DNA of 64,000 nucleotides, taken from positions 1,991 through 65,990 of the forward strand of contig DASZEX010000033.1 in assembly GCA_035940365.1 (NCBI GenBank). Reading direction: 5' to 3'. Below, one piece after another: positions 11,858 through 64,000 of the stretch. Both the position numbers and the translations under genes were made by a program. The notes under the pieces are model-generated. The model was not told where the DNA came from and did not search any database. It saw only the letters and a program-made list of their open reading frames with translations. Source of the DNA: Candidatus Babeliales bacterium (GTDB lineage Bacteria; Babelota; Babeliae; Babelales; Vermiphilaceae). Numbering within the stretch: the first letter of the stretch is position 1; each line of letters opens with the position of its first letter.

Positions 11858-12343
11858 TTAAAGATTAAACTCACTATGTATGAGTGATTTAAACTCTTTG
11901 GCCGTTGATGGGGCATTATGGCGGTAAATTGATTTACCATCTTTGAAGAAAATAATATAGGGAATACTTTTGACGCCATACTCATCGGCAAGATCTTTAA
12001 ATGTCGCTGTATTGACTTTGACAAATAAAATATTAGGCTCTTGTGCCGCTACCCGTTCAAAAATAGGTCCAAATTTTTTGCATGGTGGACACCATTCGGC
12101 ATAAAAGTCAACAATAACCATACTATGGTCATTAATTATTTTAGTAAATGCATCAGCTGCAGATTCTCCTTTTTCAATTATATTTTGTAACTCAGTAGCA
12201 TTATGAGTTCGTTTTTCTGCTGTGATATCTTGGGTTATAGGTTCGGTGATAGGTTCATGCATTTCTTTTTTTTGAGTTTGTGTGCAACCAGTTAAACCAG
12301 TCATGCAAAAAAAAGATATTATTATAGAATTTGATTTCATCAT
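11858..12343 (-). CDS. exported thioredoxin-fold lipoprotein
   Basis: 161 aa; lipobox LTGC after signal peptide; VDFYAEWCPPCKKFGP thioredoxin active site. Confidence 0.85.
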   Translation of the reverse strand: MMKSNSIIISFFCMTGLTGCTQTQKKEMHEPITEPITQDITAEKRTHNATELQNIIEKGESAADAFTKIINDHSMVIVDFYAEWCPPCKKFGPIFERVAAQEPNILFVKVNTATFKDLADEYGVKSIPYIIFFKDGKSIYRHNAPSTAKEFKSLIHSEFNL

Positions 12344-12490
12344 TGTTATACCTTTTACATTTATATTATAATGGTGCTATCTTGTATTAGTAGTACCTTA
12401 TACCAAAATATATATTGTATGCAAGATAAATAATATAATTGATAAAAATGTACTATGTAATGGATGCATAGAATAAAAAAGGAGAATTAT

Positions 12491-12709
12491 ATGCAACATT
12501 TTATGAAAAATTTACCTGAACCATTTGTTGGCCTTCTTTTTATGATATTTAGTATTATTATTATATTAGATGCCATGGGAATTATTTATGCAACAGCACT
12601 TGTTATTATTGGTGCATTTATTGCATTATGGTATGGGTTTATATTGATACAAGGGCCCAAAAAAGTACGTCATGTATTGGAGAATATGCATATAGGTAAA
12701 AAGCATTAA
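12491..12709 (+). CDS. small two-TM membrane protein
   Basis: ATG at 12491 preceded by AAGGAG; the ORF track start at 12464 lacks an SD; two hydrophobic helices. Confidence 0.5.
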   Translation: MQHFMKNLPEPFVGLLFMIFSIIIILDAMGIIYATALVIIGAFIALWYGFILIQGPKKVRHVLENMHIGKKH

Positions 12710-12727
12710 TTTAGATACTTTTTTGTA

Positions 12728-12766
12728 TGCAAATAAAGCCACGTTATTCACGTGGCTTTATTTGCA
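12728..12766. terminator. 16-bp stem hairpin between convergent genes
   Basis: TGCAAATAAAGCCACG-ttattca-CGTGGCTTTATTTGCA; preceded by a T-run on plus; overlaps the last codons of the channel gene. Confidence 0.55.
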
Positions 12767-15700
12767 TATGAGGGCCTATATTGTTTTTTTCACTTAACTC
12801 TTGCGGTATAATTTGCATTATAGGTAATGCGAGTTTAATATCCAATTCGCGGAATTTTTGAACTATAGCAATGCGTACATCACTTGCAATATCCCATTGA
12901 TCTAACGTATAAGCAGAACTCAAGTAGCCACGTACCATAAATACAAATCCTCGGTTACCCAAATCATCAAGACGTACAATAGCTTTTGGATTGCGCAATA
13001 CTTGAGGATGCTCATGTACTATCTGCATCAAAAGTTCTTTGACCCGAGCAGGATCTTCATGGATTTGTACAATAACATAAATATCATCAAACGCGATAAA
13101 GTTTCGTGTATAATTCCAATTCTCAATAGCATGCGTAATTAAATGTGCATTTGGTACTACAATAGTAGTGCTATTGCGGCGTCGCAATACAACAGCACGT
13201 GGTGTAATTTTGCGTACAATACCCATTATTTGATCATTAATTCTAATATAATCACCAATTTTAATTTGTCTTTGAACCAGAATAATAAAGTAAGCAACAA
13301 TATCAACCATCGGATCTTTTAGAACCCAACCAATACTCAAACCAAGTACTGCAATGAGCCAGGTTACCAGACCGCCCAAACCAACACTTTGCAGTGCAAT
13401 ACAAAATACAGCAGTTACTATTATATAACGTAAAATACGAGTAACCATATTTTGTACACCAGTATCAACCAACAAAAGATCAAAAATTTTCTCCAGCACA
13501 AACCGGTTTAATGCATATGAAATTAAAAATCCAGCTACAATAAAACCAAAGATCATAAATAGAGAAATCATGGTGATTGGATGAGGCGATGCTTTAAGCA
13601 ATAATGGTTCATATAACCATTCAAAAGCATGTTTGAGTGTAATAGGCCAGCCCCATATTTTGGCACCAATAAATATGCCAATCGATAAAAACAAAAGAAA
13701 TGATGCAATAATAGATAAACCAAACCATGTTTTGGCATTAGCAAACCGCTCGCGGATAACTTGATCTCGCTCTTCAAAAAAAAGATACTTGGCACCACTT
13801 TTGAAAAAGTTATGCGCAATAAGTAATGCTTTGCATAATAATATAGTATATACAATACCAGCAACTATATACATGACCAATCGGCCGTACCCTACATATG
13901 GATGACTCATTACAATAACCAATAAAACACAACAAAAAAGCAAATAATAGTAATTGTCTACAAAACTATAGAGCCAATCGGTAATAGTATTATAACGTGG
14001 AATAATACTTAATATCTGTTCTTTGGTAATTAAAAGGAGCAGAGATATTTGAAAAAAAATAATATTAACCGCTGATATAATAGTCGGTAATTCCGAATGA
14101 TACAGATCTGGCTGATAATAATAAATATTCATAAATGCATGTCTAAAAATTATAAGTATGGTACTGACGTACCCGAGCAAAGATAATATGGTTATGTATC
14201 TATCTTGTATATGAACATCAAAAAGAACATAATTATGTTGCTCATTAAAGCGTATGCATTGGTGGGCAAAGGTATATATAATAAAACTAAAATAGGCAAT
14301 AGACATTAAGCAAATAAGTACATAAATATATGGATCAGGAATAATATGTAAACTCAATACATTATATATAATAAGCCCAAAGGTAAGCAGAATTATATGT
14401 GTGCGTATATATAACAGGCTTAATGCAATGAGTAAACCAAAAAAATGCACAATACCACGTCCCGGTAATACTATGTGTATAATGCGGTTATAAATACTTG
14501 GTATTATGCGGTATAATATAATAGATAATAGTATAATGAGTAGTAGCTTATATAATAAAGTAAAAAGTATACCAGGAACGGTGAGTAATTCACCTACACG
14601 CACTATAAATGCTTTCATATCAAAGCGCGCTAAATAAGAATTTAATTCACCGGCAAAGGATGCTATATCATGTCCTATTGAAGTAAATCCCTTCCAGGAA
14701 ATAGCATAGGAAGGTCTATACCATATGGTAATAATAGATTGCAATTCTCCTATAATGAAATTAATAACGCGAATTGATGCATTAATTTCAGATAATAAAC
14801 CGGAATAAACACCGGTCAATTTTCCCAATACTTCAGTTGTTTCACGTACTTTGCGGTCTGCACGTCTAAGTACATCTAGACATAAAGCATGTTCTTGAGG
14901 TACATTTTTGAATAAAGTAGCTCGTTTTGATTCAATGGTCATACGTAGTGTATGAATATTATCTGAAATTCTTTTTTGCATATTAAGTTGCTCTGCTACT
15001 TGTGTATTTTTTTCTTTATATGTAGCAAGCGATGCTTGGATAGTGGCCTTTATGGTTTCATAATATTTTATTTCTTGATTAATTTGTTCTTCTGTTGCAA
15101 AACGTCGTGCAATAATTTTAAAATAGGTTTCTTTTGCTTTTGCTTGTAACATATGATATGAAAATTGTTCATCTTCAAGGGCAATATTTGCATCAAGCAA
15201 AATCTTATTTTTTTTTAGCAGAAGCATACTTGAGTTAACTAAACCTGCTTTGCAAAGACCTACATATGATTCTACTGTTTGATTTGGTTCACGGCTCCAG
15301 TCATCAAGGTCAGTACCAGGGTTAATATTATATTGTTTGCGGATAACCTCATATGCAGCTTCTTGTATTTTAAGTTGTGTATCCAATTCATCAATTGCAT
15401 GACGATATGATTCTTTGCGGGCAAAATATTCTTGTTGCAGCTTTTTGAGCGATTCTTTAGCCCCTAAAACATCCGTTTCATTAATACGTAATGATGATTT
15501 AATACGTCCTAAAAAATCTTTCAAAATAGTAAGTTGCGATTTGGCAATAAACTGCTGAAAAGCGGTTAATTCAACGCGGTAGGTACTTTCATCTACTTGT
15601 AATTGGCTATATTCTTTTTTTGCTTCATATAATGCTATTTCTGCTTTGAGTAAATCAATTGGCTCTTGGTCATGTGTATTACTCATATATGTTAGGTCTT

Positions 15701-16334
15701 CTTGTCGTTTTTTTAGATCTGATACTATGACTGTAAGGGCACGTTCACGGGTTTTGAGCTCTGTTTGTGCGTTTTTTAATTGTTCGCTTAAATGCCCAAG
15801 CCGTTGTTCATTTTCTCTAATCATCTGATGTATGCGTAATATATCATCAAATGAATAATATACATTTGCTATTAATTTACGTTCTTTTTTGAAACTTTCA
15901 TGTTGTATATCATCTAAAAATTTAGTGATTTCACTGCTGAGGGTCTCGATAGTTGTTTTAAGTTCATCTCGTTGACGTTCGATATCTTTGAATGTTTGGT
16001 ATGTTTCATTTAATATCGTGAGTTTTTTGACCGCATCATCTTCTGCTTGATATTGTAACCCTTCGCGGGTGGTGCGACGTGCGGTTTTTACTTCATTAAG
16101 TACCTGTGTGATACGTTCCTGAAATAATGGTGTACTTTCTTCAAGCGATTGGCGTATTTTTTCTAATTGTTCTTTTTGATGTTGCTTTTCTTCCCGAACA
16201 CTCAACAAAGGTCTTTGTACACTAATAGTATGTACTGCATCAAGTATTCCATTACCTCCGCCATGATTGCTATCAGCATATGTTAACCCATCTATTACTA
16301 ATAGGAAGGTGAAAATGGTATATAATATCTTCAT
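12744..16334 (-). CDS. MscS-family mechanosensitive channel with long N-terminal coiled-coil domain (MscK/MscM-like)
   Basis: 1196 aa; signal peptide, ~550 aa coiled-coil region, ~11 TM helices, C-terminal MscS core (IKIGDYIRINDQIMGIVRKITPRAVVLRRRNSTTIVVPNAHLIT). Confidence 0.85.
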   Translation of the reverse strand: MKILYTIFTFLLVIDGLTYADSNHGGGNGILDAVHTISVQRPLLSVREEKQHQKEQLEKIRQSLEESTPLFQERITQVLNEVKTARRTTREGLQYQAEDDAVKKLTILNETYQTFKDIERQRDELKTTIETLSSEITKFLDDIQHESFKKERKLIANVYYSFDDILRIHQMIRENEQRLGHLSEQLKNAQTELKTRERALTVIVSDLKKRQEDLTYMSNTHDQEPIDLLKAEIALYEAKKEYSQLQVDESTYRVELTAFQQFIAKSQLTILKDFLGRIKSSLRINETDVLGAKESLKKLQQEYFARKESYRHAIDELDTQLKIQEAAYEVIRKQYNINPGTDLDDWSREPNQTVESYVGLCKAGLVNSSMLLLKKNKILLDANIALEDEQFSYHMLQAKAKETYFKIIARRFATEEQINQEIKYYETIKATIQASLATYKEKNTQVAEQLNMQKRISDNIHTLRMTIESKRATLFKNVPQEHALCLDVLRRADRKVRETTEVLGKLTGVYSGLLSEINASIRVINFIIGELQSIITIWYRPSYAISWKGFTSIGHDIASFAGELNSYLARFDMKAFIVRVGELLTVPGILFTLLYKLLLIILLSIILYRIIPSIYNRIIHIVLPGRGIVHFFGLLIALSLLYIRTHIILLTFGLIIYNVLSLHIIPDPYIYVLICLMSIAYFSFIIYTFAHQCIRFNEQHNYVLFDVHIQDRYITILSLLGYVSTILIIFRHAFMNIYYYQPDLYHSELPTIISAVNIIFFQISLLLLITKEQILSIIPRYNTITDWLYSFVDNYYYLLFCCVLLVIVMSHPYVGYGRLVMYIVAGIVYTILLCKALLIAHNFFKSGAKYLFFEERDQVIRERFANAKTWFGLSIIASFLLFLSIGIFIGAKIWGWPITLKHAFEWLYEPLLLKASPHPITMISLFMIFGFIVAGFLISYALNRFVLEKIFDLLLVDTGVQNMVTRILRYIIVTAVFCIALQSVGLGGLVTWLIAVLGLSIGWVLKDPMVDIVAYFIILVQRQIKIGDYIRINDQIMGIVRKITPRAVVLRRRNSTTIVVPNAHLITHAIENWNYTRNFIAFDDIYVIVQIHEDPARVKELLMQIVHEHPQVLRNPKAIVRLDDLGNRGFVFMVRGYLSSAYTLDQWDIASDVRIAIVQKFRELDIKLALPIMQIIPQELSEKNNIGPHMQIKPRE

Positions 16335-16340
16335 TGTACC

Positions 16341-16916
16341 CTATAATTTTTTAGATATTTTAGTAGTATTTGTTACCAATTTAAATTCTTCTAAACAATA
16401 ATGTATCCATATTTGTAACCCTGTTAAACACTCTACATGGAGATTAATATTATTTAAAGTATTAATGGGCGTAGCATGTATATGATATATACATTCGTGG
16501 CATATAGCCGGTTGATGGGGTCCATGTGAGCCAAAAAGCATACATAACTTCATCAAAATTATATCTTTGCATACAGCATTTAACATTAAAGGGACATTAA
16601 TACATAACCAATGCACTATCGTATATACTTCAGGTATAGATGACCCTATAGGCATTTTATCACAAAGTTCCATGACTTGGTGTAAAAATGCAAGATCTTC
16701 TACTGATACAGCAAGTGGTACATGACAAAGTTCTTGTATAACAAGACGGGATATGCCACCCTTGCCTGATATAGAATAAAGTATATGAGAACAAATAGGA
16801 ATATAGTGAGGATATAGAAGTATATTTTTTCCTTGTATTGAATCTAAAATGGTAACATTTTGCTTTTGCTGATCAGTACGTAGTATTATTCCAATAAGTA
16901 TATCGTGTTGTTTCAT
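16341..16916 (-). CDS. hypothetical protein (weakly RecO-like)
   Basis: 191 aa; the N-terminal GIILRTDQQKQNVTILDSIQGKNILL block and later helical region loosely resemble RecO; not secure. Confidence 0.3.
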   Translation of the reverse strand: MKQHDILIGIILRTDQQKQNVTILDSIQGKNILLYPHYIPICSHILYSISGKGGISRLVIQELCHVPLAVSVEDLAFLHQVMELCDKMPIGSSIPEVYTIVHWLCINVPLMLNAVCKDIILMKLCMLFGSHGPHQPAICHECIYHIHATPINTLNNINLHVECLTGLQIWIHYCLEEFKLVTNTTKISKKL

Positions 16917-16962
16917 TACATCCTTTTAAATTCAGATCAATAGTTTTATAGGAAATAATACT

Positions 16963-18615
16963 ATGAAAAATCATATAGTACAAAAAATGGTATTCATGAT
17001 CATTATATATACACTATTATTACAGGGAGACAATGCTACTCCGCGGCTTACGCTTATTTTTGTTATAGATCAACTTGCCTATAATACATTACAATTGGTA
17101 CAATCCCATTTACATAAAGGATTAAAACGTTTGCTAGCCGAAGGGGTAGTATTTACTAATGCGCATCATCCTCATGGAATGCCTGCTACTTGTACAGGAC
17201 ATACAGCTTTAAGTACTGGTGCCTATGGCAATGAACATGGTATTGTGGGTAATAGTTGGATTAATACAGAAGGAAAGCATGTTGCATGTGATGATGCTAG
17301 TGCTGTAGACGCAGCGGTACTTTCGCCTGATGGTGAATATGCATATGGCAAATCATTTCAATACGGTATGGTAGATGGCATATCTGATCAGTTTGTGTTG
17401 CAAAGTACAAAAGAAGAACCATACTATGCCTATGGTATTTCACTCAAAAGTCGTGCGGCTATTGCAACGGCCAATAGAGCTGGAATCGCATTATGGTTTG
17501 ATGCTCAGTCGGGCACGTTCACTTCAAGCAAAGCATACGTGCAAACATTACCAGAATGGGTTATTGCATTCAATAAACAGTATGCAGTTACATCACCCGG
17601 GCAAATAAGGTGGCAGCAAAAATATAACAATAATGCAGCCTATAGTATGGTTTTATATGATAATTATAAATACGTTGCGTCCCATAAGCCATTAGTAAAT
17701 ACTATTATTCCTATTGGTCCTATGGTAGATGCCAAAAATCCTTATGAACTTTTTATGTTAACACCAGCAGCAAATCAATTAATGATTGATTGTGCAACTG
17801 CTTGTGTACAAGCACATATAAATAAAGAAAAACCAGATACATTATTATTATGGGCTTGTATTAGTAGTCTTGATAAATTAGGACATGCATATGGGCCATG
17901 GAGCAAAGAAACCGTTGATATGTTATATCATTTGGATTATCAAATTTCAGCTATGATGCATACTATTGAATCATATATAGACCCGGCATCAATTGTATAT
18001 GTATTGACCAGCGATCATGGTATTTCGCCAATTGTACAGCAAATGAATCAAAAAGGATTTAATTTTGCAAAACGCATTGATAGTGAGCAATTAATAAAGA
18101 ATCTCAATAAATATGTACAAGAGACATACGGATATACTAATAGTATCTATGGTATTAAAGGTCATCAATTATATCTTAATACCAATATACTCATGAAAAT
18201 GCCTTACCAGGAGCGTCAAAAGTTAATAAAAGATTTACAAGTGTTGCTTGAATCCCATGATGGTATCAAAAGGGCATGGACACCTGAGGAGTTATTAATG
18301 CGTTGTTTTCCCCGTTATTCGGCTGAAAATTATTTTAAACAACAATTATTCAAAAATAGATCGGGTAATTTGATTATGCAGGTATATCCCTACACTATTA
18401 TCACCAGTCATCCCTATGGCACAAGCCACAAAACACCGTATACCTATAATACGCATGTGCCACTTATTGTATATCAAAAGGGTACAATACAGAAAAAACA
18501 GATACATACGAAGGTATTAACGCTGCAACTAGCACCTACGCTGGCCCAGCTGCTTCATATTCCGCAGCCATCCTGTGCAATGGAAGAAGTATTACCCGGT
18601 ATACTACCTGAATAA
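16963..18615 (+). CDS. alkaline phosphatase family / nucleotide pyrophosphatase-phosphodiesterase (NPP, PafA-like)
   Basis: 550 aa; signal peptide, IFVIDQLAY, PATCTGHTALSTGAYGNEHGIVGNSW (nucleophile Thr region), LDKLGHAYGP, LTSDHG. Confidence 0.8.
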   Translation: MKNHIVQKMVFMIIIYTLLLQGDNATPRLTLIFVIDQLAYNTLQLVQSHLHKGLKRLLAEGVVFTNAHHPHGMPATCTGHTALSTGAYGNEHGIVGNSWINTEGKHVACDDASAVDAAVLSPDGEYAYGKSFQYGMVDGISDQFVLQSTKEEPYYAYGISLKSRAAIATANRAGIALWFDAQSGTFTSSKAYVQTLPEWVIAFNKQYAVTSPGQIRWQQKYNNNAAYSMVLYDNYKYVASHKPLVNTIIPIGPMVDAKNPYELFMLTPAANQLMIDCATACVQAHINKEKPDTLLLWACISSLDKLGHAYGPWSKETVDMLYHLDYQISAMMHTIESYIDPASIVYVLTSDHGISPIVQQMNQKGFNFAKRIDSEQLIKNLNKYVQETYGYTNSIYGIKGHQLYLNTNILMKMPYQERQKLIKDLQVLLESHDGIKRAWTPEELLMRCFPRYSAENYFKQQLFKNRSGNLIMQVYPYTIITSHPYGTSHKTPYTYNTHVPLIVYQKGTIQKKQIHTKVLTLQLAPTLAQLLHIPQPSCAMEEVLPGILPE

Positions 18616-20405: not shown

Positions 20406-20779
20406 CGCACCGTGGGTAGGCAATCGCGTACACTATATGTATGAGGAAAGTCCGGACTCCAAACAAATACAGTGCCTCGGGAGAATAGTATGTCAATCGA
20501 GGGGAATCATATAATATATCGGTTATATGGTTTACGGAAAGTGCCACAGAAAATAACCGCCTTATATGTTATATAGGGTAAGGGTGAAAATGTGTAGTAA
20601 GAGTACACGCGCGCTAGCAGTAATGCTATAGCGGGGTAAACCCCACTGGGAGCAAGACAAAGCAGTGCAAATTGTCCGATTATTTGTTTCGGCCTGATGC
20701 ACGGGTATGTCGCATAGATAAATGGTTGCCATGACTAGTACTATAGTCAGACAGAATCCGGCTTATGCTCACGAGTGCG
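20406..20779 (+). ncRNA. rnpB: RNase P RNA (bacterial type A)
   Basis: Conserved blocks GAGGAAAGTCCGGACTCC, GGTAAGGGTGAAA, ACAGAATCCGGCTTA. P1 pairing 20406-20418 with 20766-20779. GC-rich island in AT-rich DNA. Confidence 0.9.
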
Positions 20780-20874
20780 AATTTTAATAAAAATACCGAA
20801 TCTATATTGTTTTTAATTATTTCCTTCAGTACACTGATATATACTGTTGTATTCTCTATTGTTAAAGGATCAGC

Positions 20875-56842: not shown

Positions 56843-57714
56843 CTATTCTTCACCATATGGGCCAAGTTTTTCTTTAATTTTATCTTGTGCTTGCCATGCG
56901 CGCAAAAGTGGATAAGGATGTTGAGGATCTTTGATATTCAATAATTTTTGATCTAAATGTCCCTTGAGCATCTTTGATTCAAGGCCCATAAGGGCTTCAA
57001 TATCATTACTATTAAGTACTTCAGCGTCAGCTTCAAATTCCATTTTTTGCATATTATTATAATATTCTTGGAGAGTTATTTCGGATTTTACATATTTATC
57101 ATACAGCAAGCGTAACTTATCAGAATCATTATGTTTTAAATGCGCATATTCATGAAGAATACTTGATTTAATTTCGAATGGATGCAGTGAATGAGAATAA
57201 GGTTTGTAAAAATATCGGATAATTGGATCACCCAAAAAAAATTATAATAAAGTAATTGCCATATATTTGGATTGTTTATTTTTTTAAATTCTTTCCACGA
57301 TAATAATTTAGCCTTATTTTTTTTTATTGATTTGATAATAGAAGGATGTATAAATATATATTTATTATTTGTATAGGGTGATTGATTAGAAGCAAAAGGG
57401 TTATCCAAATTAGCTTGAATTACAATAACAGATGGGTCTTGTGTAATTTGATGTACATAATTCTGTATTTCTTGGTCAGCAAAGCGCCATCCAGGATAAT
57501 ATTTATCTGCAATTGCTTTATCTATTTCTATAGGATTATCTTTTTCTAGGTTGCTTATTGTTTTTTTGGCTGCGGATGTTGGCAGAAAAAATAATGAGAA
57601 TGAGTGTTTTAATCTATTTATAAATTCCAATCTAGGCTGTATTGGTTCATTATGAGCAATTAAACGAACTACTAATATAAAAAATATACATAATGCTCTT
57701 ATTGCTTGTTTCAT
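56843..57714 (-). pseudogene. exported HExxH metallopeptidase paralog, frame broken at a T8 (plus-strand A8) tract
   Basis: ORFs 57136..57714 (N-part) and 56843..57235 (C-part with ILHEYAHLKHND) join into one 290-aa frame if the run at 57234-57241 were 9 nt (...LLYYNFFLGDPIIRYFYKPYSHSLHPFE...); collinear with intact paralog 58274..59155. Confidence 0.7.
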
Positions 57715-57842
57715 TAGGCCTCCATTTATTATTATAAGTATAACAAGAATAAGAAAATAATTTCAATATACAATAAAAACTTGATTTAATATAATAAATA
57801 TATGTAGATATGATATTATTATCAACATAACGTATAAAAAAT

Positions 57843-58175
57843 TTAACGTGATCGTTTAAATATTTCGTGTGGATCTTTGCCAAGTAAAGCACATAAATGC
57901 GCTAAGCTGGCTAAGGTAATATTGGCTTCACCTTTTTGAATTTTTGCCACTTTACTTGGACTCCAATCTAATTTTCTCACCAAATCATTAAAGCCAATTT
58001 TGTTGATTTTCATATAATCATTCATAATATCAGAAATCATTTTCTGTATTGTTTGAAGGTAACGAACTTCCAATGCTGCTTGAGCTTCTATGGTAGCTAT
58101 TTCATTCTTATTAAGTCTTTGTTCTAAGTATTTTTGAAAGCTTTTTGTTTTCATAGTTTTTTCATAATTATCCAT
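57843..58175 (-). CDS. XRE-family helix-turn-helix transcriptional regulator
   Basis: 110 aa; C-terminal LVRKLDWSPSKVAKIQKGEANITLASLAHLCALLGKDPHEIF is a Cro/C1-type HTH. Confidence 0.75.
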   Translation of the reverse strand: MDNYEKTMKTKSFQKYLEQRLNKNEIATIEAQAALEVRYLQTIQKMISDIMNDYMKINKIGFNDLVRKLDWSPSKVAKIQKGEANITLASLAHLCALLGKDPHEIFKRSR

Positions 58176-58273
58176 GTAATATATATTTTATATTATACTA
58201 CATTATATTATATTATAATCTATAATATTTTGATAAAAACTATCCAAAATGGTTTGAATGAAACGAGAATAGC

Positions 58274-59155
58274 TTATTCCTCGCCATATGGGCCAAGTTT
58301 TTCTTTAATTTTATCTTGTGCTTGCCATGCGCGCAAAAGTGGATAGGGATGGTGTGGGTCTTTTATATTATGAATTTTTTTATTTAAGTGGGATTTAAGC
58401 ATACTAGATTCTACTCCCATTAATATATGGATATCATTACTTTTAAGTACTTCAGTATCAGCTTCTTTTTCTAATTTTTGCCTTTGTCTGTAATATTCTT
58501 CTGCAGTTATTTCTGATTTTTTATATTTATTATTAAGTTTTCTTATTTTTGCAGTATCATCATGTTGTAAATGTGCATATTCATGCAAGATTATTGTATC
58601 AATTTCCCATGGATGTAAGGTATTGTAGAATTTTCCTCGTATTATTTGATGAATAAGATTATGTAGAGATGGTGTTTCTTTAGTGAAAAGTAGATCCGAT
58701 GATTTATCATATTCATTTATAGTTTTAAATTCTTTCCAAGATAGCAATATGTTGTTATGAGATTTATTTTTTAGTATTTGAATGATTGCAGAGTTTAATA
58801 TAATATATTTATTATTTGTATAAGGAGATTTCAAAGATGTAGGGTCCATGCCATTCGTTTCAATTACTACGATGGACGGATCTTTAGTTAATGTTGCTAC
58901 ATAATTCTGAATTTCTTTATCTGCAAAGCGCCAGCCATTTGGAAAAAAAGAGTTACTATTAAATGCTTCAAGATCTATGGCAAAATTTGCACCAAAAAAT
59001 GGAATTGAAGGCCGTTTAATAGGAAAAAATCTTCTTTTTATACGTGACCAAAGGTCAATTTGTTTGAATATTAAAGGCCTTTTATCTTGAGCATATAAGT
59101 TTATAGATACGGTAAATAGTATATACAATCTATATGCTCTTATTGCTTGTTTCAT
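58274..59155 (-). CDS. exported zinc metallopeptidase (HExxH; M48/M56-like motif HEYAHLQHDD)
   Basis: Start at MKQAIRAYRLYILFTVSINLYAQ (SD GGAG); HExxH at ILHEYAHLQHDD, downstream acidic EKEADTE; intact paralog of 56843..57714. Confidence 0.6.
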   Translation of the reverse strand: MKQAIRAYRLYILFTVSINLYAQDKRPLIFKQIDLWSRIKRRFFPIKRPSIPFFGANFAIDLEAFNSNSFFPNGWRFADKEIQNYVATLTKDPSIVVIETNGMDPTSLKSPYTNNKYIILNSAIIQILKNKSHNNILLSWKEFKTINEYDKSSDLLFTKETPSLHNLIHQIIRGKFYNTLHPWEIDTIILHEYAHLQHDDTAKIRKLNNKYKKSEITAEEYYRQRQKLEKEADTEVLKSNDIHILMGVESSMLKSHLNKKIHNIKDPHHPYPLLRAWQAQDKIKEKLGPYGEE

Positions 59156-59244
59156 TGCATACTCCAATTAATTCTAATATACCAAATTCAATGCAATAAT
59201 TACAAGTATTTATTATATAATCAAAAAAATGCAATTATATATAT

Positions 59245-59823
59245 TTAATTATTATGTGGTTCATATACAAAATAGACAAGGCCATGTTCATCACGCATAA
59301 TTTCATGAAATCCTATTTTTGTATATATGCGTTGTGCGGGTGTATTATCAGTACGGGTGACTAAATTTATTTGGTTTGCACCCATTTTGATTAATTGCTC
59401 AATTGCATAGCGTGCCATTTTTTCACCATATTGTTTGCCGCGATATTCGTGTTTGACCGCCAAAAAGAGTAGCATGCCTATGTGTTTGGTTTTCATATAA
59501 TATGCCACAAAACCAGCGACCTTATTATCAATATGCAATATTTTTATGATTAATTTGTCATGATGCATAGGATTTGCTTGTGGTGCTTTGTGTTTAAATA
59601 CATAGTCTACATAGCCTGGGTGGTATGATTCTTTGGGTTCTGGAAATAACCAATACCAATTTTCATTAATAATATCTAAAATTTCTGGCATATCCCGTTT
59701 GTAGACAAAATCAGCAAGTGGCATAGTTGCTTTGCTAGAGCTATAATACCATATGCCTGTTGATATAAGGCCTATAGTAGCAATTAAAGGGGCAATAACA
59801 CGAAAGGATTTATTAATGTGCAT
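59245..59823 (-). CDS. GNAT-family N-acetyltransferase with N-terminal TM anchor
   Basis: 192 aa; FLAVKHEYRGKQYGEKMARYAIEQL acetyl-CoA binding motif (R-x-x-G-x-G/A type). Confidence 0.8.
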   Translation of the reverse strand: MHINKSFRVIAPLIATIGLISTGIWYYSSSKATMPLADFVYKRDMPEILDIINENWYWLFPEPKESYHPGYVDYVFKHKAPQANPMHHDKLIIKILHIDNKVAGFVAYYMKTKHIGMLLFLAVKHEYRGKQYGEKMARYAIEQLIKMGANQINLVTRTDNTPAQRIYTKIGFHEIMRDEHGLVYFVYEPHNN

Positions 59824-59826
59824 GAA

Positions 59827-60573
59827 TTATCCATTGGTATAAGTTATTCGATATAATAATAAACCTTCAGCTGGCGCATTTAGTAATGCATGCTGAGGAT
59901 TTTTAGCCAAAAGCACTTGTTTTATTAAGTTTACCTGAAAATCAGAGTTTGATGCAACATGCACGGCAGCACCGACTATGCGTCTGATCATATGACGCAA
60001 AAAAGAATGGCCTTTGACCGTGATGCGATAGGCATTGAACCGTTTAATATAGTGCACAGAAATAGCATCAATAGTACGTATAGTATCAGTACGTTTATCC
60101 TCCGCACAATAAAAGGCATTAAAATCATGAGTACCTACAAATATCTGCAACGCTTCCTCTAATTTTTTGCTATCAATAGGTGTTCTATAATACCAGCCAT
60201 ATAGTGCACAAAATGGCAACGGCCGCTGGGTATATATATGATAATAATATATTTTGTGATCAACATTATGCATAGGGTGAAAGGTATCTGAAACGAGCGC
60301 AGCCGAACGTATATGAATATCAATTGGCAAGCTATTATTTAATACCCATACAAGTTTATTTGGATCGATGGATAATGGCGTTATACACCGCACTACTTGC
60401 CCCAATGCATGCACACCAGCATCAGTACGTGAAGCACCTAAAAATTGTGCAGGTACATTACATACCCGTGCAAACGTTTTTTCTATAGTACCAAGCACCG
60501 AAGGTACATGTGCTTGTTGTTGCCACCCTGCATAGGCAGTACCATCATAGGCAATAATAAGTTTGTAGATCAT
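59827..60573 (-). CDS. truA: tRNA pseudouridine(38-40) synthase TruA
   Basis: 248 aa; IAYDGTAYAGWQ, GASRTDAGVHALGQV catalytic Asp motif. Confidence 0.95.
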   Translation of the reverse strand: MIYKLIIAYDGTAYAGWQQQAHVPSVLGTIEKTFARVCNVPAQFLGASRTDAGVHALGQVVRCITPLSIDPNKLVWVLNNSLPIDIHIRSAALVSDTFHPMHNVDHKIYYYHIYTQRPLPFCALYGWYYRTPIDSKKLEEALQIFVGTHDFNAFYCAEDKRTDTIRTIDAISVHYIKRFNAYRITVKGHSFLRHMIRRIVGAAVHVASNSDFQVNLIKQVLLAKNPQHALLNAPAEGLLLYRITYTNG

Positions 60574-60911
60574 TCGTCTTCTGTATATATATCAGATTTC
60601 GAAGCATTGTAGAGAAATTTACAAACCCACACAATGAAACCAGTAGTACCAATAACTCCCATATACCATTCAATAGTATCTTGCGTTCCACGGTTTGGCC
60701 ATTTTTTGGTTTGTTTTATAGTATTGAGGGATTCCGTAAGATTTTTACATTCACTCTTCAATGCATTTATTTCATATTGTAATTTGTTATTTTCCTGCTT
60801 GAGCACAATGATTTCTTCTTGCAATTCTGAATATTCAATATTAGATAATTTAGTCGAATATATAGCTATATTATATACTAAACAAAAAGATAGTGCTAAA
60901 AAATATTTCAT
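60570..60911 (-). CDS. small coiled-coil protein with C-terminal TM (array member 6 in transcription order)
   Basis: 113 aa; MKYFLALSFCLVYNIAIYS, LQEEIIVLKQENNKLQYEINALKSECKNLTESL, TM WYMGVIGTTGFIVWVCKFLY; ATGA overlap with truA. Confidence 0.55.
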   Translation of the reverse strand: MKYFLALSFCLVYNIAIYSTKLSNIEYSELQEEIIVLKQENNKLQYEINALKSECKNLTESLNTIKQTKKWPNRGTQDTIEWYMGVIGTTGFIVWVCKFLYNASKSDIYTEDE

Positions 60912-60946
60912 AAGTATCCACTAAATATTATCTTTTTTTTGCAAAA

Positions 60947-61285
60947 TTATTCGCCACCCTCATATGGATTTTGATGCTCTATTACTGCTGCGAACATAAA
61001 GCATACTATGGCTATTCCTGCTACTGCCCAACCACGTATAGCCCATTTTTTCCACCAATCTCTATCTTTTTGTAAATCAGACAGGTGAATTTCAAATAAA
61101 GCTTTTTCTTCTTTTAATTGTTTATACTTTGCATATAATGATCCGGGTTTTTGATAATTTTTTTGATCAAAATGTTCAGGAAAGAGTACATTTTCGTTGG
61201 AAATTATATTCTGATTGCTGATATTCATAGTATATGCATGTATATTACAAAATATAAAAATAAGTAAAAGACAACGTTTTGTCAT
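60947..61285 (-). CDS. small coiled-coil protein with C-terminal TM (array member 5)
   Basis: Start at MTKRCLLLIFIFCNIHAYT; LFPEHFDQ...YKQLKEEKALFEIHLSDLQKDRDWWKKWAIRGWAVAGIAIVCFMFAAV. Confidence 0.55.
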   Translation of the reverse strand: MTKRCLLLIFIFCNIHAYTMNISNQNIISNENVLFPEHFDQKNYQKPGSLYAKYKQLKEEKALFEIHLSDLQKDRDWWKKWAIRGWAVAGIAIVCFMFAAVIEHQNPYEGGE

Positions 61286-61313
61286 ATGTATCTTGCATAT
61301 TTTCCAGATAATA

Positions 61314-61646
61314 TTACTTCCATGGATCTGTAGATTGTTGTTCATCTCGGTAGTCTTTTATTATTTTGACCAATAAAAGTAATAAAATTGCAGATACTGA
61401 CCAGCCAGCTATACTTGTTTTTTTCCATGAATCTTTACTTTTTTGCAAATCAGACAGGCGAATTTCAGATAAAGCATTTTCTGCTTTTAATTGTTTAATT
61501 TGTGTATGCAATGAAGGCTTTTCTTTTTGTGTTTGATCAAAATGTTCAGGCAAGAGTAAACCTATATTTTGATTGTCATTGGTGTTCATAGGAGATGAGT
61601 GCGTACTATACAATATACATACAAGTACAAAAAGATGTTTTTTCAT
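61314..61646 (-). CDS. small coiled-coil protein with C-terminal TM (array member 4)
   Basis: Start at MKKHLFVLVCILYS (SD GAAGGA); LLPEHFDQ...IKQLKAENALSEIRLSDLQKSKDSWKKTSIAGWSVSAILLLLLV; clear paralog of the preceding entry. Confidence 0.6.
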   Translation of the reverse strand: MKKHLFVLVCILYSTHSSPMNTNDNQNIGLLLPEHFDQTQKEKPSLHTQIKQLKAENALSEIRLSDLQKSKDSWKKTSIAGWSVSAILLLLLVKIIKDYRDEQQSTDPWK

Positions 61647-61761
61647 GATAATTCCTTCTATATACATAATTATTCTTATTTTGATGAATTATTAAAATTG
61701 GTTATTTTTCCAATATTATAAGTAAGAACTGCTATACCAGCAATAAGGAATATACCTAATA

Positions 61762-61862
61762 ATACCAATCCGCTGACAAAAAATAAGTGATTGTTTTACA
61801 CAAAATTCCGTTGCAGGAGATGCGGTTTCAATGCTGCTTAGTAGTTGTCAGCGGATTGGTAT
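61762..61862. repeat. perfect 18-bp inverted repeat with 65-nt spacer
   Basis: ATACCAATCCGCTGACAA (61762-61779) and TTGTCAGCGGATTGGTAT (61845-61862); spacer contains two in-frame TAA codons of the array member above it. Confidence 0.85.
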
Positions 61863-62113
61863 AAGTTATTTCCTAAAGTTTGTATTGCGTTGTAGCTAAT
61901 GTATACGGTTTGAGATGTATATTGTTCGTGTAATGCGTTATACTTTTCATTTAGCTCTGTATTAACTCTTTCCAGTCTATCAATTTTTTCTTGATATAAC
62001 TGTAATATTTGTTCATTTGATACTAAGGGCCTTTCTGTATTTTTTTCTTGATTCATTGCAACAATATGCATAGAATACATCGACAAGAAAAAGATAATGG
62101 TTTGTTTCTTCAT
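61838..62113 (-). CDS. small coiled-coil protein lacking the C-terminal TM (array member 3; anchor-coding remnant continues in frame downstream to 61676)
   Basis: 91 aa; MKKQTIIFFLSMYSMHIVA, coiled coil QILQLYQEKIDRLERVNTELNEKYNALHEQY; stops at TAA 61838-61840. Confidence 0.5.
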   Translation of the reverse strand: MKKQTIIFFLSMYSMHIVAMNQEKNTERPLVSNEQILQLYQEKIDRLERVNTELNEKYNALHEQYTSQTVYISYNAIQTLGNNLYQSADNY

Positions 62114-62124
62114 AATAATTCCAT

Positions 62125-62532
62125 TTATTTATTTGAATTTCCTGATGCCCACCAAATAAAGCCAATGACAATGGCATTTATGCCACCAAGAGTCCATATT
62201 AGTTCCCACGGAATAGAGGGGAACGGTACATCTGTAGACATACTTTGTAATTTGGAAATAGGTGTATTTTGTAATTTGGAAAGATTATTCAAATCATTTT
62301 TCATTGCGTTTATGTTGATAGCCAATTGATTACGGTCTTCAAGTAATTTATTATTCTCTTGTCTTAATAGGTTGTTTTCTTGCCTAAGTTTATCGATTTC
62401 TTTTGCATACACAGCTACTACCTGTTGGTCATGAGATAACAATGGTTTGCCTTTTGAAGGATCATCAACTGAACCATATAATACATGAGTAGTTAGCAGC
62501 ATGCTACTAACTACTCTACTTAATTTTTTCAT
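62125..62532 (-). CDS. small coiled-coil protein with C-terminal TM (array member 2)
   Basis: 135 aa; EIDKLRQENNLLRQENNKLLEDRNQLAININAMKNDLNNL; TM WELIWTLGGINAIVIGFIWWA. Confidence 0.55.
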   Translation of the reverse strand: MKKLSRVVSSMLLTTHVLYGSVDDPSKGKPLLSHDQQVVAVYAKEIDKLRQENNLLRQENNKLLEDRNQLAININAMKNDLNNLSKLQNTPISKLQSMSTDVPFPSIPWELIWTLGGINAIVIGFIWWASGNSNK

Positions 62533-62833
62533 TTGAATCCTTTGAATTAATTACATAAAGCAAAGCAATGAAACAACCTAACAATGTCACTCCCAATGCT
62601 CCAGATAATAACTGCAATTCAAAATTTTCTTTTTGAAGAATCTTTTTTTCAGTTTTTAATCGCCCATTTTTTTGATTAAGTTTATTAATTTCTGTAACTA
62701 AATCGAATGATTTTACTAATAACGATTCAGTAGATTTTACTGGCGATTCAGTATTTGTTAGTTTATCCATAGTGTAAATAGTATTAGTTAGTATGCTCAT
62801 ACTAACTAATACATGCATGCACATTCTTTTCAT
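62516..62833 (-). CDS. small coiled-coil protein with C-terminal TM (array member 1)
   Basis: Start at MKRMCMHVLVSMSILT; EINKLNQKNGRLKTEKKILQKENFELQ; TM LLSGALGVTLLGCFIALLYVI. Confidence 0.55.
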   Translation of the reverse strand: MKRMCMHVLVSMSILTNTIYTMDKLTNTESPVKSTESLLVKSFDLVTEINKLNQKNGRLKTEKKILQKENFELQLLSGALGVTLLGCFIALLYVINSKDSNEKIK

Positions 62834-62838
62834 ATACA

Positions 62839-64000
62839 CTACTTTCTTTTGGCCGGCTTTTTGCGTAAACGAATGGCAACTGGTGTTACTTCTATCAGTT
62901 CATCAGGACCAATCCATTCAATACATGTTTCTAGGTCCATAATACGTGGTGGCGCTAGTTTAATAGCATCATCAGTACCTGAAGCGCGCATATTGGTTAA
63001 TTTTTTTTCTTTGCATGGATTAACGCTCAAATCATTCGATCTGCTATGCTCACCAATAATCATACCATCATAGACCGGAGCGCCAGGTTTTATAAATAAA
63101 ACGCCGCGCGGTTGCAATGCATCAAGCGCATAACCGGTTGCAGTGCCAGTGTCCATAGATACCAGTGCGCCTTTGGTTCGCGTCGGAATATCACCTTTAT
63201 ATGGCTCGTATCCATAAAAACGCATGGTAACTACGCCAGTACCCCGAGTATCGGTCAAAAATTGGTTACGGAATCCAAGAAGAGCGCGTGATGGTACATG
63301 ATATTCAATACGCATGCGATCTCCTGGTAATGGAGATAGGTTCTGCATAATAGCTTTGCGGTTTCCCATCATTTCCATAACCACGCCTTGATGTTCGGCA
63401 GGGACATCAATAACTACGTGTTCAATAGGTTCGCATTTTTCGCCATCAATAGTTTTATAAATAACTTCTGGCGCAGATACTTGTAGTTCAAAACCTTCAC
63501 GCCGCATAGTTTCAATTAAAATGCCCAAATGTAGTTGGCCACGGCCAGAAACTTTAACCGTTTCAGGTGAATCAGTTTCTTCTACGCGCAATGCAACATT
63601 AGTACGTAATTCTTTTTGTAGACGGTCTTTGAGGTTACGTGATGTCAAAAAGGTACCTTCCCTACCTGCAAAGGGAGAATCATTTACTGAGAAATACATA
63701 CTCAAGGTCGGTTCATCAATTTTAACATAAGCATGTGGTGCTGGATGCCCTACGGCACATAAGGTAGTACCAATAGTAGGTGAAGTATCAAAACCTGCAA
63801 CAGCTACGATATCTCCATAACTTACTTCAGGTGTTTCTTGGCGTGTAAGTCCATGAAAAGTGAATAATTTAATTATTTTAGTTGGTGCAGAAATCGTTTT
63901 ATCTTTGCACAAAATTATTTGATCACCGGTTTTGACCGCGCCACTAAATACACGTCCAATAGCTATTGGACCCAAAAAGTCTGAATGATCTAGACTGGTG
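62839..64000 (-). CDS. typA: translational GTPase TypA/BipA, C-terminal ~385 aa (N-terminus beyond window end)
   Basis: Frame open to position 64000. IAIGRVFSGAVKTGDQI, EETDSPETVKVSGRGQLHLGILIETMRREGFELQVSAPEVIYK, C-terminal ...IEVTPVAIRLRKK are BipA-typical. Confidence 0.9.
   Translation of the reverse strand, partial: TSLDHSDFLGPIAIGRVFSGAVKTGDQIILCKDKTISAPTKIIKLFTFHGLTRQETPEVSYGDIVAVAGFDTSPTIGTTLCAVGHPAPHAYVKIDEPTLSMYFSVNDSPFAGREGTFLTSRNLKDRLQKELRTNVALRVEETDSPETVKVSGRGQLHLGILIETMRREGFELQVSAPEVIYKTIDGEKCEPIEHVVIDVPAEHQGVVMEMMGNRKAIMQNLSPLPGDRMRIEYHVPSRALLGFRNQFLTDTRGTGVVTMRFYGYEPYKGDIPTRTKGALVSMDTGTATGYALDALQPRGVLFIKPGAPVYDGMIIGEHSRSNDLSVNPCKEKKLTNMRASGTDDAIKLAPPRIMDLETCIEWIGPDELIEVTPVAIRLRKKPAKRK

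Follow-up and report, generated by a model that had tools for sequence, protein, structure and literature searches.

The window analysed here, a stretch of 64 kb, comes from a metagenome-assembled genome of a Candidatus Babeliales bacterium and carries an array of six small genes between the housekeeping genes typA and truA. Following the direction of transcription, we call them m1 to m6. The array proteins are annotated at NCBI as 'hypothetical protein VGW78_02250-02265 [Candidatus Babeliales bacterium]', and because of this name we assigned the organism to the phylum Dependentiae/TM6. Contigs matching the window at 100% identity are present in JGI 3300037491 and in two SRA runs. The array and its surroundings consist of the following features (aa, amino acids; TM, transmembrane).

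62839..63975, minus strand: 3' part of typA (bipA), the upstream flank, with Pfam GTP_EFTU, EFG_C and BipA_C; the full gene is in locus L001
62516..62833, minus strand: m1, 105 aa from the ATG at 62833; signal-like N-terminus, six-heptad Leu zipper that abuts the C-terminal TM helix SGALGVTLLGCFIALLYVI, tail NSKDSNEKIK
62487..62516, minus strand: perfect hairpin with a 13-bp stem and a 4-nt loop, GAGTAGTTAGTAGC-ATGC-GCTAACTACTC
62125..62532, minus strand: m2, 135 aa; weak signal-like N-terminus, six-heptad Leu zipper with Asn at a positions, Pro-containing linker, C-terminal TM helix LIWTLGGINAIVIGFIWWA; same sequence as protein P0130
61838..62113, minus strand: m3, truncated open reading frame of 91 aa; signal peptide and coiled coil, ending at a premature TAA
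61676..61837, minus strand: m3 remnant, in frame with m3; TM helix LFFVSGLVLLGIFLIAGIAVLTY (Kyte-Doolittle hydropathy, KD, 2.75) and polar tail
61314..61646, minus strand: m4, 110 aa; signal peptide, LPEHFDQ motif, short helix, DSWKK juxtamembrane segment, C-terminal TM helix
60947..61285, minus strand: m5, 112 aa; signal peptide, FPEHFDQ motif, short helix, DWWKKW juxtamembrane segment, C-terminal TM helix, acidic tail
60570..60911, minus strand: m6, 113 aa; signal-like N-terminus, Leu zipper of about six heptads, KWPNRGTQ break, moderately hydrophobic C-terminal helix
59827..60573, minus strand: truA, the downstream flank, with Pfam PseudoU_synth_1
59245-59823: GNAT acetyltransferase, after truA

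A preliminary description of this DNA had listed six minus-strand open reading frames (ORFs) of 91-135 aa in the typA-truA interval. All of them are present at the coordinates claimed for them, and the peptide strings quoted with them are correct. That the array is packed tightly into a run of housekeeping genes also holds when the overlaps and short gaps are read on the coding strand. The typA stop codon (TAG, 62841-62839) is separated by 5 nt from the ATG of m1, for which an alternative start, a GTG at 62839, overlaps that stop. There is a 17-nt overlap of m1 with m2; m2 and m3 are 11 nt apart, m4 and m5 28 nt and m5 and m6 35 nt, and m6 overlaps the start of truA through ATGA at 60573-60570, as had been noticed before. 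The GC content of the array is 0.29-0.32, compared to 0.38-0.43 in the flanks. A promoter and terminator scan of the array gave no signal above shuffle expectation.

The hairpin at 62487-62516 begins at the m1 stop codon and lies within the signal-peptide codons of m2, 16 nt 3' of the m2 start. Its folding energy is -19.4 kcal/mol (z = -3.4), and 0 of 200 shuffles fold equally well. It could be a modulator of m2 translation or an RNA processing mark.

Shared architecture of the array proteins

Every member has the hydrophobic N-terminus ascribed to it in the preliminary description, with an MK[KR] start, an 11-residue KD mean of 1.45-2.9 and a hydrophobic (h-) region of 9-16 residues, which is shorter than a TM helix needs. 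A hydrophobic 19-mer (KD 1.36-2.75) is encoded at the C-terminal end of all six, the m3 remnant included. Between these two segments, which lie 55-90 residues apart, nothing is hydrophobic, and the mid-region hydropathy maximum is 0.4 or less. The same three-part layout is found in L084_g1/g2, L086_g1-g3, L088_g2 and P0140, proteins of related genomes.

The preliminary description gave a C-terminal anchor to five of the six members. This is true of the complete ORFs; m3, however, still encodes its anchor after the stops. Its reading frame runs into a TAA at 61840-61838, continues for 13 codons to a second TAA (61798-61796) and then encodes the anchor in 39 codons that end at 61676. By this frame, m3 is a decayed, nonsense-disrupted copy, and all six members once had an anchor. 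Recoding or read-through of the m3 TAA codons was considered and rejected, TAA being the normal stop of m2, m4 and m5.

A heptad coiled coil had been claimed for each member, and only part of this claim survived comparison with shuffled sequences. In the strict zipper test, which asks for six consecutive heptad-spaced L/I/M residues (the d-chain), P was 0.003 for m1, 0.013 for m2 and 0.001 for m6, their d-chains being LLLLLL, LLLLML and LLLLLI, respectively; the polar residues of the core are Asn at several a positions. The truncated m3 passed a looser a/d heptad test (5 of 500 shuffles scored as well). In m4 and m5 there are only about three irregular heptads, which were not beyond chance in the shuffle test. 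Over the zippers of all six members, Fisher's combined P was 1.6e-4. AlphaFold2 modelled m6 as two helices (2-68 and 77-105) that break at KWPNRGTQ, with a confidence score (pLDDT, predicted local distance difference test) of 91-94 in the zipper, and m5 as one continuous helix (49-105), in which a short coil passes through DWWKKW into the TM segment. Foldseek returned 0 matches in the PDB for the m6 model, as expected for an extended two-helix model.

The paralogy asserted for the array is strong for m4 and m5 (48% identity, E=7e-26) and moderate to marginal for other pairs. At E about 1e-6, m2-m3 and m2-m6 are moderately similar; the support is weak for m3-m4 (E=3e-4), and m1-m6 is a marginal case (E=0.01). 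Common to the family are the MK[KR] start, a near-invariant Gly that opens the TM segment and, in 9 of 11 members, a conserved Met behind the h-region; these landmarks support a common origin. In most members the residues at -3 and -1 before the conserved Met are small (IVA|M, SFG|M, SFS|M, TMG|M, AYT|M).

On the minus strand, m4 (61520-61560) and m5 (61160-61200) have an identical 19-nt stretch, CCTGAACATTTTGATCAAA, which encodes PEHFDQ, while their overall divergence at synonymous sites (dS) is about 0.5. It would fit a motif under strong constraint in this pair only, or else a tract of local gene conversion.

Searches for known families

The earlier remark that no named family fits has stood up: Pfam, NCBIfam, PHROGs, PADLOC and the PDB gave sub-threshold matches to generic coiled coils only. 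Pfam and NCBIfam were run on all six proteins, and Pfam also on all 11 family members. The nearest curated model was DivIC (PF04977) on m6, with 27.0 bits against a cutoff of 28.9; on the same protein FtsL (TIGR02209) reached 23 bits against 42.45, with E=5e-5, and FtsB (NF002058) 14.8 against 101. Among the 11 family members, DivIC was matched at E<=0.01 in 2 only. The best match of the sequence-profile search against the PDB was ZapB (E=9e-4).

No holin, spanin or defence system emerged, as nothing was significant in PHROGs and PADLOC, and we dropped these readings. The best PHROGs matches were a 'hemolysin' (E=4.5e-4) and an Rz-like protein (E=0.009), both on m6 only; m2 had one weak non-lysis match (phrog_8369, E=5.8e-4), and the other four members had none. 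The flanks, typA and truA, offer no phage context. By eye, the lipobox of an Lpp-like lipoprotein is absent: the c-region of m1, m2 and m3 lacks a Cys, and in m4 (VLVC), m5 (IFC) and m6 (SFC) the residue at -1 to the Cys is not G, A or S.

Two word-indexed profile searches of 5.8 billion proteins recovered only the array family itself, including its member in L088. An exhaustive hidden Markov model (HMM) search of 1.84 billion representatives returned, beyond the family, mostly long generic coiled coils and a few small look-alikes. P0140 is a probable distant member, by its landmarks and its place after rpsF-rpsR. The family HMM found no further copies in the window or in the retrieved loci of relatives, and the literature searched describes neither a small zipper-plus-anchor family nor a hypervariable slot within the rpsF-rpsR-typA-truA run.

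P0150 and P0146 were not accepted as members and are architectural look-alikes only. P0150, with a signal peptide, a zipper and a C-terminal anchor, lies between dnaE and dnaN (L091, 5632-7233; GCA_964031065.1, OZ034995.1, a 524-kb record with a locus GC of 27%) and is flanked by two paralogous signal-peptide and coil proteins that end in ...YR(K/E)(A/S)RGIK. By analogy, this locus is possibly a comparable array in an unrelated context.

The slot between typA and truA in related genomes

We compared the typA-truA interval with that of relatives found through TruA (58-67% identity), in which the slot carries 1-4 small proteins. The gene order in the relatives is rnhB / lexA-like / rpsF / rpsR / (typA) / small ORFs / truA / GNAT, and the slot follows typA, or rpsR where typA is absent.

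L084: 2 ORFs between typA and truA
L085: 1 ORF between typA and truA
L086: 3 ORFs between typA and truA
L087: 2 ORFs between typA and truA
L088: 2 ORFs between typA and truA
L094: 3 ORFs between typA and truA
L092: 4 ORFs between rpsR and truA
One JGI contig: 4 ORFs between rpsR and truA, from gene calls

Most of these ORFs have a signal-like N-terminus ending in [small]-x-[small]-Met-[N/E/Q/D]. In those with the architecture, a zipper comes next, but a Pro/Gln-rich linker takes its place in two cases; several have a W/K/R-rich juxtamembrane segment, and they finish in a Gly-rich C-terminal TM helix whose first Gly is near-invariant. BLAST similarity among the slot proteins of different genomes is nearly lost (E=1e-3 to 1e-4). 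In a more distant relative (RpsF 48% identical), P0140 stands directly after rpsF-rpsR. Judging from these loci, the array family is not species-specific and is restricted to one Babeliales clade.

A scan of species-representative genomes with TypA yielded one relative only (L004; TypA 65% identical). It keeps rpsF-rpsR-typA...truA, and its 5.6-kb interval contains unrelated genes. The slot content of L093 is, like that of L004, wholly different from the array. It appears from these gene contents that lineage-specific secreted proteins have a general hot spot in the typA-truA slot.

The L004 interval (12022-17329) holds a tandem pair of paralogs of 284 and 308 aa, a 428-aa protein on the minus strand and a 265-aa protein with multiple TM segments. 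Two tandem small signal-peptide proteins of 94 and 133 aa are also found there, with the common motif GDTSGM(T/S)WQQLA..C..GQC(T/S)P. At the other end of the conserved run, all of the related genomes examined share a LexA-like gene (HTH_3/HTH_19 and Peptidase_S24; L001 4266-4943 and its equivalents in L084-L087 and L092), which is directly upstream of rpsF and diverges from rnhB.

Evolutionary rates and decay

Rates of evolution were taken from the close relatives L084 and L088, and from m4 and m5 as paralogs within the window (dN, divergence at nonsynonymous sites; omega, dN/dS).

typA, L084 vs L088: dN 0.004, dS 0.156, omega 0.026
truA, L084 vs L088: dN 0.042, dS 0.505, omega 0.084
Slot gene 1, 3' part, L084 vs L088: dN 0.146, dS 0.36, omega 0.41
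Slot gene 2, L084 vs L088: dN 0.446, dS 0.90, omega 0.49
m4 vs m5: dN 0.375, dS 0.495, omega 0.76

Omega is 0.4-0.8 in the array family, compared to 0.03-0.08 in the flanks. The proteins of the family evolve 10-100 times faster than those of their neighbours and undergo duplication, recombination and decay, while their physicochemical pattern is kept. Slot gene 1 of L088 carries a frameshift. In slot gene 2 of L088 the signal-peptide region is retained, with 88% nucleotide identity to L084, whereas the coil and TM parts, with 50-60% nucleotide identity and indels, have effectively been replaced.

Between L084 (7492-10750) and L088 (1-2569), dS shifts sharply across the slot, from 0.16 in typA to 0.9 in slot gene 2 and 0.5 in truA, and the first 61 codons of slot gene 1 are identical. 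Such an abrupt change of dS suggests a recombination breakpoint within the slot.

Discussion

From the observed gene layout, three-part architecture, zipper statistics, positional conservation and rates of evolution, we suggest that the array belongs to a lineage-specific, fast-evolving family of small type I bitopic membrane proteins of one Babeliales clade, which would be exported by the Sec pathway and oligomerize by their zippers. We give this reading a probability of about 0.5. The rules for a type I protein, that is, a signal with n-, h- and c-regions, small residues at -3 and -1 and a single C-terminal TM segment, appear to be followed in most members. The genes are packed on the same strand, and the array is probably transcribed together with the rpsF-rpsR-typA...truA-GNAT run. 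The Sec-type signal peptide, with its MK[KR] n-region and an h-region of 9-16 residues, would direct export, and signal peptidase I would cut directly before the conserved Met, behind the small residues. The C-terminal hydrophobic helix would then stop transfer, leaving a helical ectodomain of 50-90 residues in the periplasm and a polar tail of 6-17 residues in the cytoplasm. The Leu-d/Asn-a zipper and the Gly-rich TM segment may drive parallel homo- or hetero-oligomerization among the paralogs, and in m1 and m5 the zipper is predicted to continue as a single helix into the Gly-rich TM segment. Selection would hold the physicochemical pattern of signal, heptads and anchor rather than the sequence, so that copies quickly duplicate, recombine and decay.

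Among dedicated secretion systems, only the type II system (T2SS) has been reported for Babela, and it belongs to the TM6 core (PMC4378268, PMC4776705); in Chromulinavorax signal peptides occur on 44% of the coding sequences, a set enriched in ORFans (PMC6561590). Because only a T2SS has been reported, and a stop-transfer helix is not exportable, anchors with a KD of 2.1-3.0 should stay in the inner membrane. The inner membrane of the bacterium itself is the likeliest location of the array proteins, which could act as an envelope spacer or scaffold, or as an adaptor at the interface between bacterium and host.

Several points weigh against this reading. Signal cleavage and orientation are deduced from sequence rules. 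The acidic tails of m5 and m6, together with the basic residues (KK, R) before their TM segments, contradict the positive-inside rule for an N-out/C-in protein, and both the h-region of m2 (KD 1.45) and the anchor of m6 (KD 1.36) are weak. Among the relatives, the anchor is absent from L087_g1, from its homolog in L094 (L094_1476) and from two genes of L092. Near-neutral omega and recurrent pseudogenes are also expected of dispensable or decaying genes, and fast evolution is more typical of host-exposed than of periplasmic proteins.

The last of these points would be accounted for if the proteins were host-directed, tail-anchored zipper effectors, either SNARE-like mimics or tethers, which we consider unlikely. 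They would leave the cell in outer-membrane vesicles or by another route and insert in the membranes of host organelles, where the zipper would pair with host or bacterial coiled coils. The family evolves very fast, changes in copy number and is mosaic, as is typical of host-interface proteins, and its acidic C-tails and the basic flanks on the N-side would suit an N-cytosol/C-lumen orientation. The coil runs straight into the TM segment in m1 and m5, and the W/K-rich juxtamembrane segment (DWWKKW, NRWWDRGK) is one that we take to resemble VAMP2. The family profile matched VAMP2 (3hd7) over coil and TM with 19 bits (E=0.011, in the PDB only), and a tandem synaptobrevin/VAMP match reached E=4e-4, to which two stretches contributed about 18 bits each. 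The organism's phylum is obligately host-associated (PMC4378268, PMC6561590), vesicle budding has been reported for Chromulinavorax (PMC6561590), and bacterial tail anchors can reach yeast mitochondria or peroxisomes (PMC5525287, PMC6219538).

However, the likeness to SNARE and Inc proteins that the preliminary description had proposed did not hold when examined. The central Gln/Arg layer is missing, as there is no Gln or Arg at d positions (criterion of PMC2265411): all of these are L, I or M, and the polar residue, Asn, occurs at a positions. The coils have 3-6 heptads rather than about eight, a Sec-like signal is present at the N-terminus, which is not the case in tail-anchored SNAREs, and Pfam gave no SNARE or Synaptobrevin match at E<=1, while the VAMP matches are at noise level per domain. 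Furthermore, the T2SS known in the phylum (PMC4378268) does not export strongly hydrophobic anchors (KD up to 3.0). Inc proteins have a long bilobed hydrophobic domain of two TM segments with a short loop between them (PMC3656976); in the array proteins there is no such domain, and the hydrophobic segments are at the extreme termini. Inc proteins are also substrates of type III secretion, and a T2SS is the only secretion system reported for Babela and TM6 (PMC4378268, PMC4776705). The preliminary description had offered an envelope scaffold as its other option, and an envelope protein agrees better with the evidence. A bolder version, in which a hypervariable repertoire of tail-anchored zippers is delivered by vesicles or an unrecognised route to host mitochondria or the endoplasmic reticulum and tethers or remodels membranes by coiled-coil pairing, is a long shot; it would be, by analogy, a convergent counterpart of SNARE/Inc mimicry without the zero layer.

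The slot might instead be a mutational or recombinational hot spot for small AT-rich ORFs with little or no function, although we find this rather improbable. The omega of 0.4-0.8, the two in-frame stops of m3, the frameshift in L088, the GC content below that of the flanks, the entirely different slot content in L004 and L093 and the lack of homologs outside the clade in the protein searches are all compatible with dispensable, decaying ORFs. However, the three-part architecture and the landmarks recur across genomes at a TruA identity of no more than 58-67%, the heptads of the zippers depart statistically from randomness, and starts and stops are coupled with essential genes. Five of the six copies are also open over 105-135 codons, although out-of-frame stops amount to 5-7% per codon.

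The position of the starts bears on a further explanation, in which the proteins are translated from the internal Met, have no signal and are cytoplasmic C-tail-anchored proteins like ElaB, YqjD and YgaM; in view of the rpsF-rpsR-typA neighbourhood, they might link ribosomes or TypA to the membrane. The starts in the array are placed differently by different gene callers, which also overlook the decayed anchor of m3, and the JGI caller starts m1, m4 and m5 at this Met, giving 84, 91 and 93 aa. The Met lies in the same alignment column in 9 of the 11 members, the slot is within a translation-related operon in every relative, and an acidic tail with a basic N-side flank fits an N-in/C-out orientation. 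However, m2 and m6 have no internal Met, and the upstream extension is always open, MK[KR]-initiated and hydrophobic. With the out-of-frame stop-codon fraction of 0.05-0.07 per codon, the chance of about 20 open codons upstream of the Met is roughly 0.26 per gene and 5e-6 jointly over 9 genes. The upstream ATGs of m2 and m4 have good Shine-Dalgarno sequences before them (AAGGA and AGAAGGA, respectively), and the internal Met has none, which supports the upstream ATGs, picked in the preliminary description, as the true starts. The N-terminal extension is probably translated because of these ribosome-binding sites, the Met-less m2 and m6 and the open frame in nine genes. In addition, the definition of C-tail-anchored proteins demands the absence of an N-terminal signal (PMC6389858), and Pfam gave no DUF883/ElaB match. 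Translation from the internal Met is therefore a poor prospect.

Divergent FtsB/DivIC/FtsL divisome proteins, or Lpp, holin or spanin proteins, are barely credible despite the m6 matches, a weak DivIC match precomputed by JGI and ZapB-like matches in 3 of the 11 members, since all scores are under the curated cutoffs and confined to the coil, and since an extra C-terminal TM segment, several copies and fast evolution are at odds with FtsB or FtsL.

The favoured reading, a zipper family of the bacterium's own envelope, matters for the biology of the phylum. Dependentiae are widespread protist parasites that are hardly cultured, and their host-interaction machinery is largely obscure; they appear to have only Sec and a T2SS, yet very many signal-peptide ORFans. 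The array is a clearly delimited example of such ORFans, conserved in position, highly variable and of a simple signal-zipper-anchor architecture. If the proteins reside in the envelope, they form a new small bitopic zipper family and show how constraint at the level of pattern hides homology. If they reach host membranes, both their route of delivery and their class of membrane-targeted effectors would be new.

Other features of the window

Another signal-peptide paralog family (MKQAIRA..., SPYTNNKYI) is present in two copies just downstream of truA-GNAT, on the minus strand at 56843-59167. Of these, one is intact (58274-59167, 297 aa), and a frameshift splits the other (57136-57714 and 56843-57235). 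Both contain HExxH (HEYAHLQHDD / HEYAHLKHND) and have the same C-terminus, PYPLLRAWQAQDKIKEKLGPYGEE. Between the copies lies an XRE/HTH_26 gene (57843-58175), and the local GC content is 0.27. Pfam assigned these paralogs to no protease family; from the motif, they may be a secreted, Zn-metalloprotease-like ORFan family. The window also encodes two ordinary housekeeping RNAs, an RNase P RNA of class A (20407-20782, 190.8 bits) and a tRNA-Arg(TCT) (1105-1181).

Comparison with known systems

FtsB, DivIC and FtsL resemble the array proteins in being small and bitopic, with a periplasmic leucine zipper that has polar a residues and lies beside a hydrophobic N-terminal segment. However, this segment is an uncleaved N-terminal TM helix in the divisome proteins, whereas the array proteins have a predicted cleavable signal, an h-region of 9-16 aa followed by a polar spacer, and a C-terminal TM segment in all. 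The array family also differs from these single-copy, conserved proteins in its 1-6 tandem copies, its omega and its sequence, which is unconserved even between close relatives.

SNAREs and the SNARE-like IncA (PMC2265411) have a heptad coil immediately N-terminal to a C-terminal TM segment, as the array proteins do. The likeness is seen in the helix of m5, which is continuous into the TM segment, in the W/K-rich juxtamembrane segment and in the weak contact with the VAMP2 profile. The array differs in having no known host delivery route, in a phylum with a T2SS only.

Proteins of the TIGR04211 type (SH3_and_anchor, E. coli YgiM) have the same order of signal peptide, periplasmic coil, single C-terminal TM segment and short tail. 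Three members (m1, m2 and m6) match the coil-plus-anchor module of this model only, at E about 3e-3 and with 17 bits against a cutoff of 65 bits. Unlike the array proteins, TIGR04211 proteins have an SH3 domain, for which Pfam gave no match in the array family, and homology is not demonstrable; the array is multi-copy and fast-evolving. The C-tail-anchored proteins ElaB, YqjD and YgaM of the inner membrane are likewise about 100 aa long, with a helical N-terminal part, a single C-terminal TM segment and a very short tail, but they have no N-terminal signal and face the cytoplasm, and the array proteins have no similarity to DUF883.

The signal-peptide ORFans and expanded families of Dependentiae (Babela, Chromulinavorax) come from the same phylum, in which many lineage-specific proteins carry signal peptides (PMC6561590), and these ORFans are presumed to act at the host interface. 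The expanded families described so far are ankyrin, F-box/ubiquitin-related or enzyme-like proteins, unlike the array. In kind, the array proteins are thus familiar, being small bitopic coiled-coil membrane proteins and signal-peptide ORFans of an intracellular bacterium; what is new is an unnamed family, confined to one clade, that keeps its position and evolves fast.

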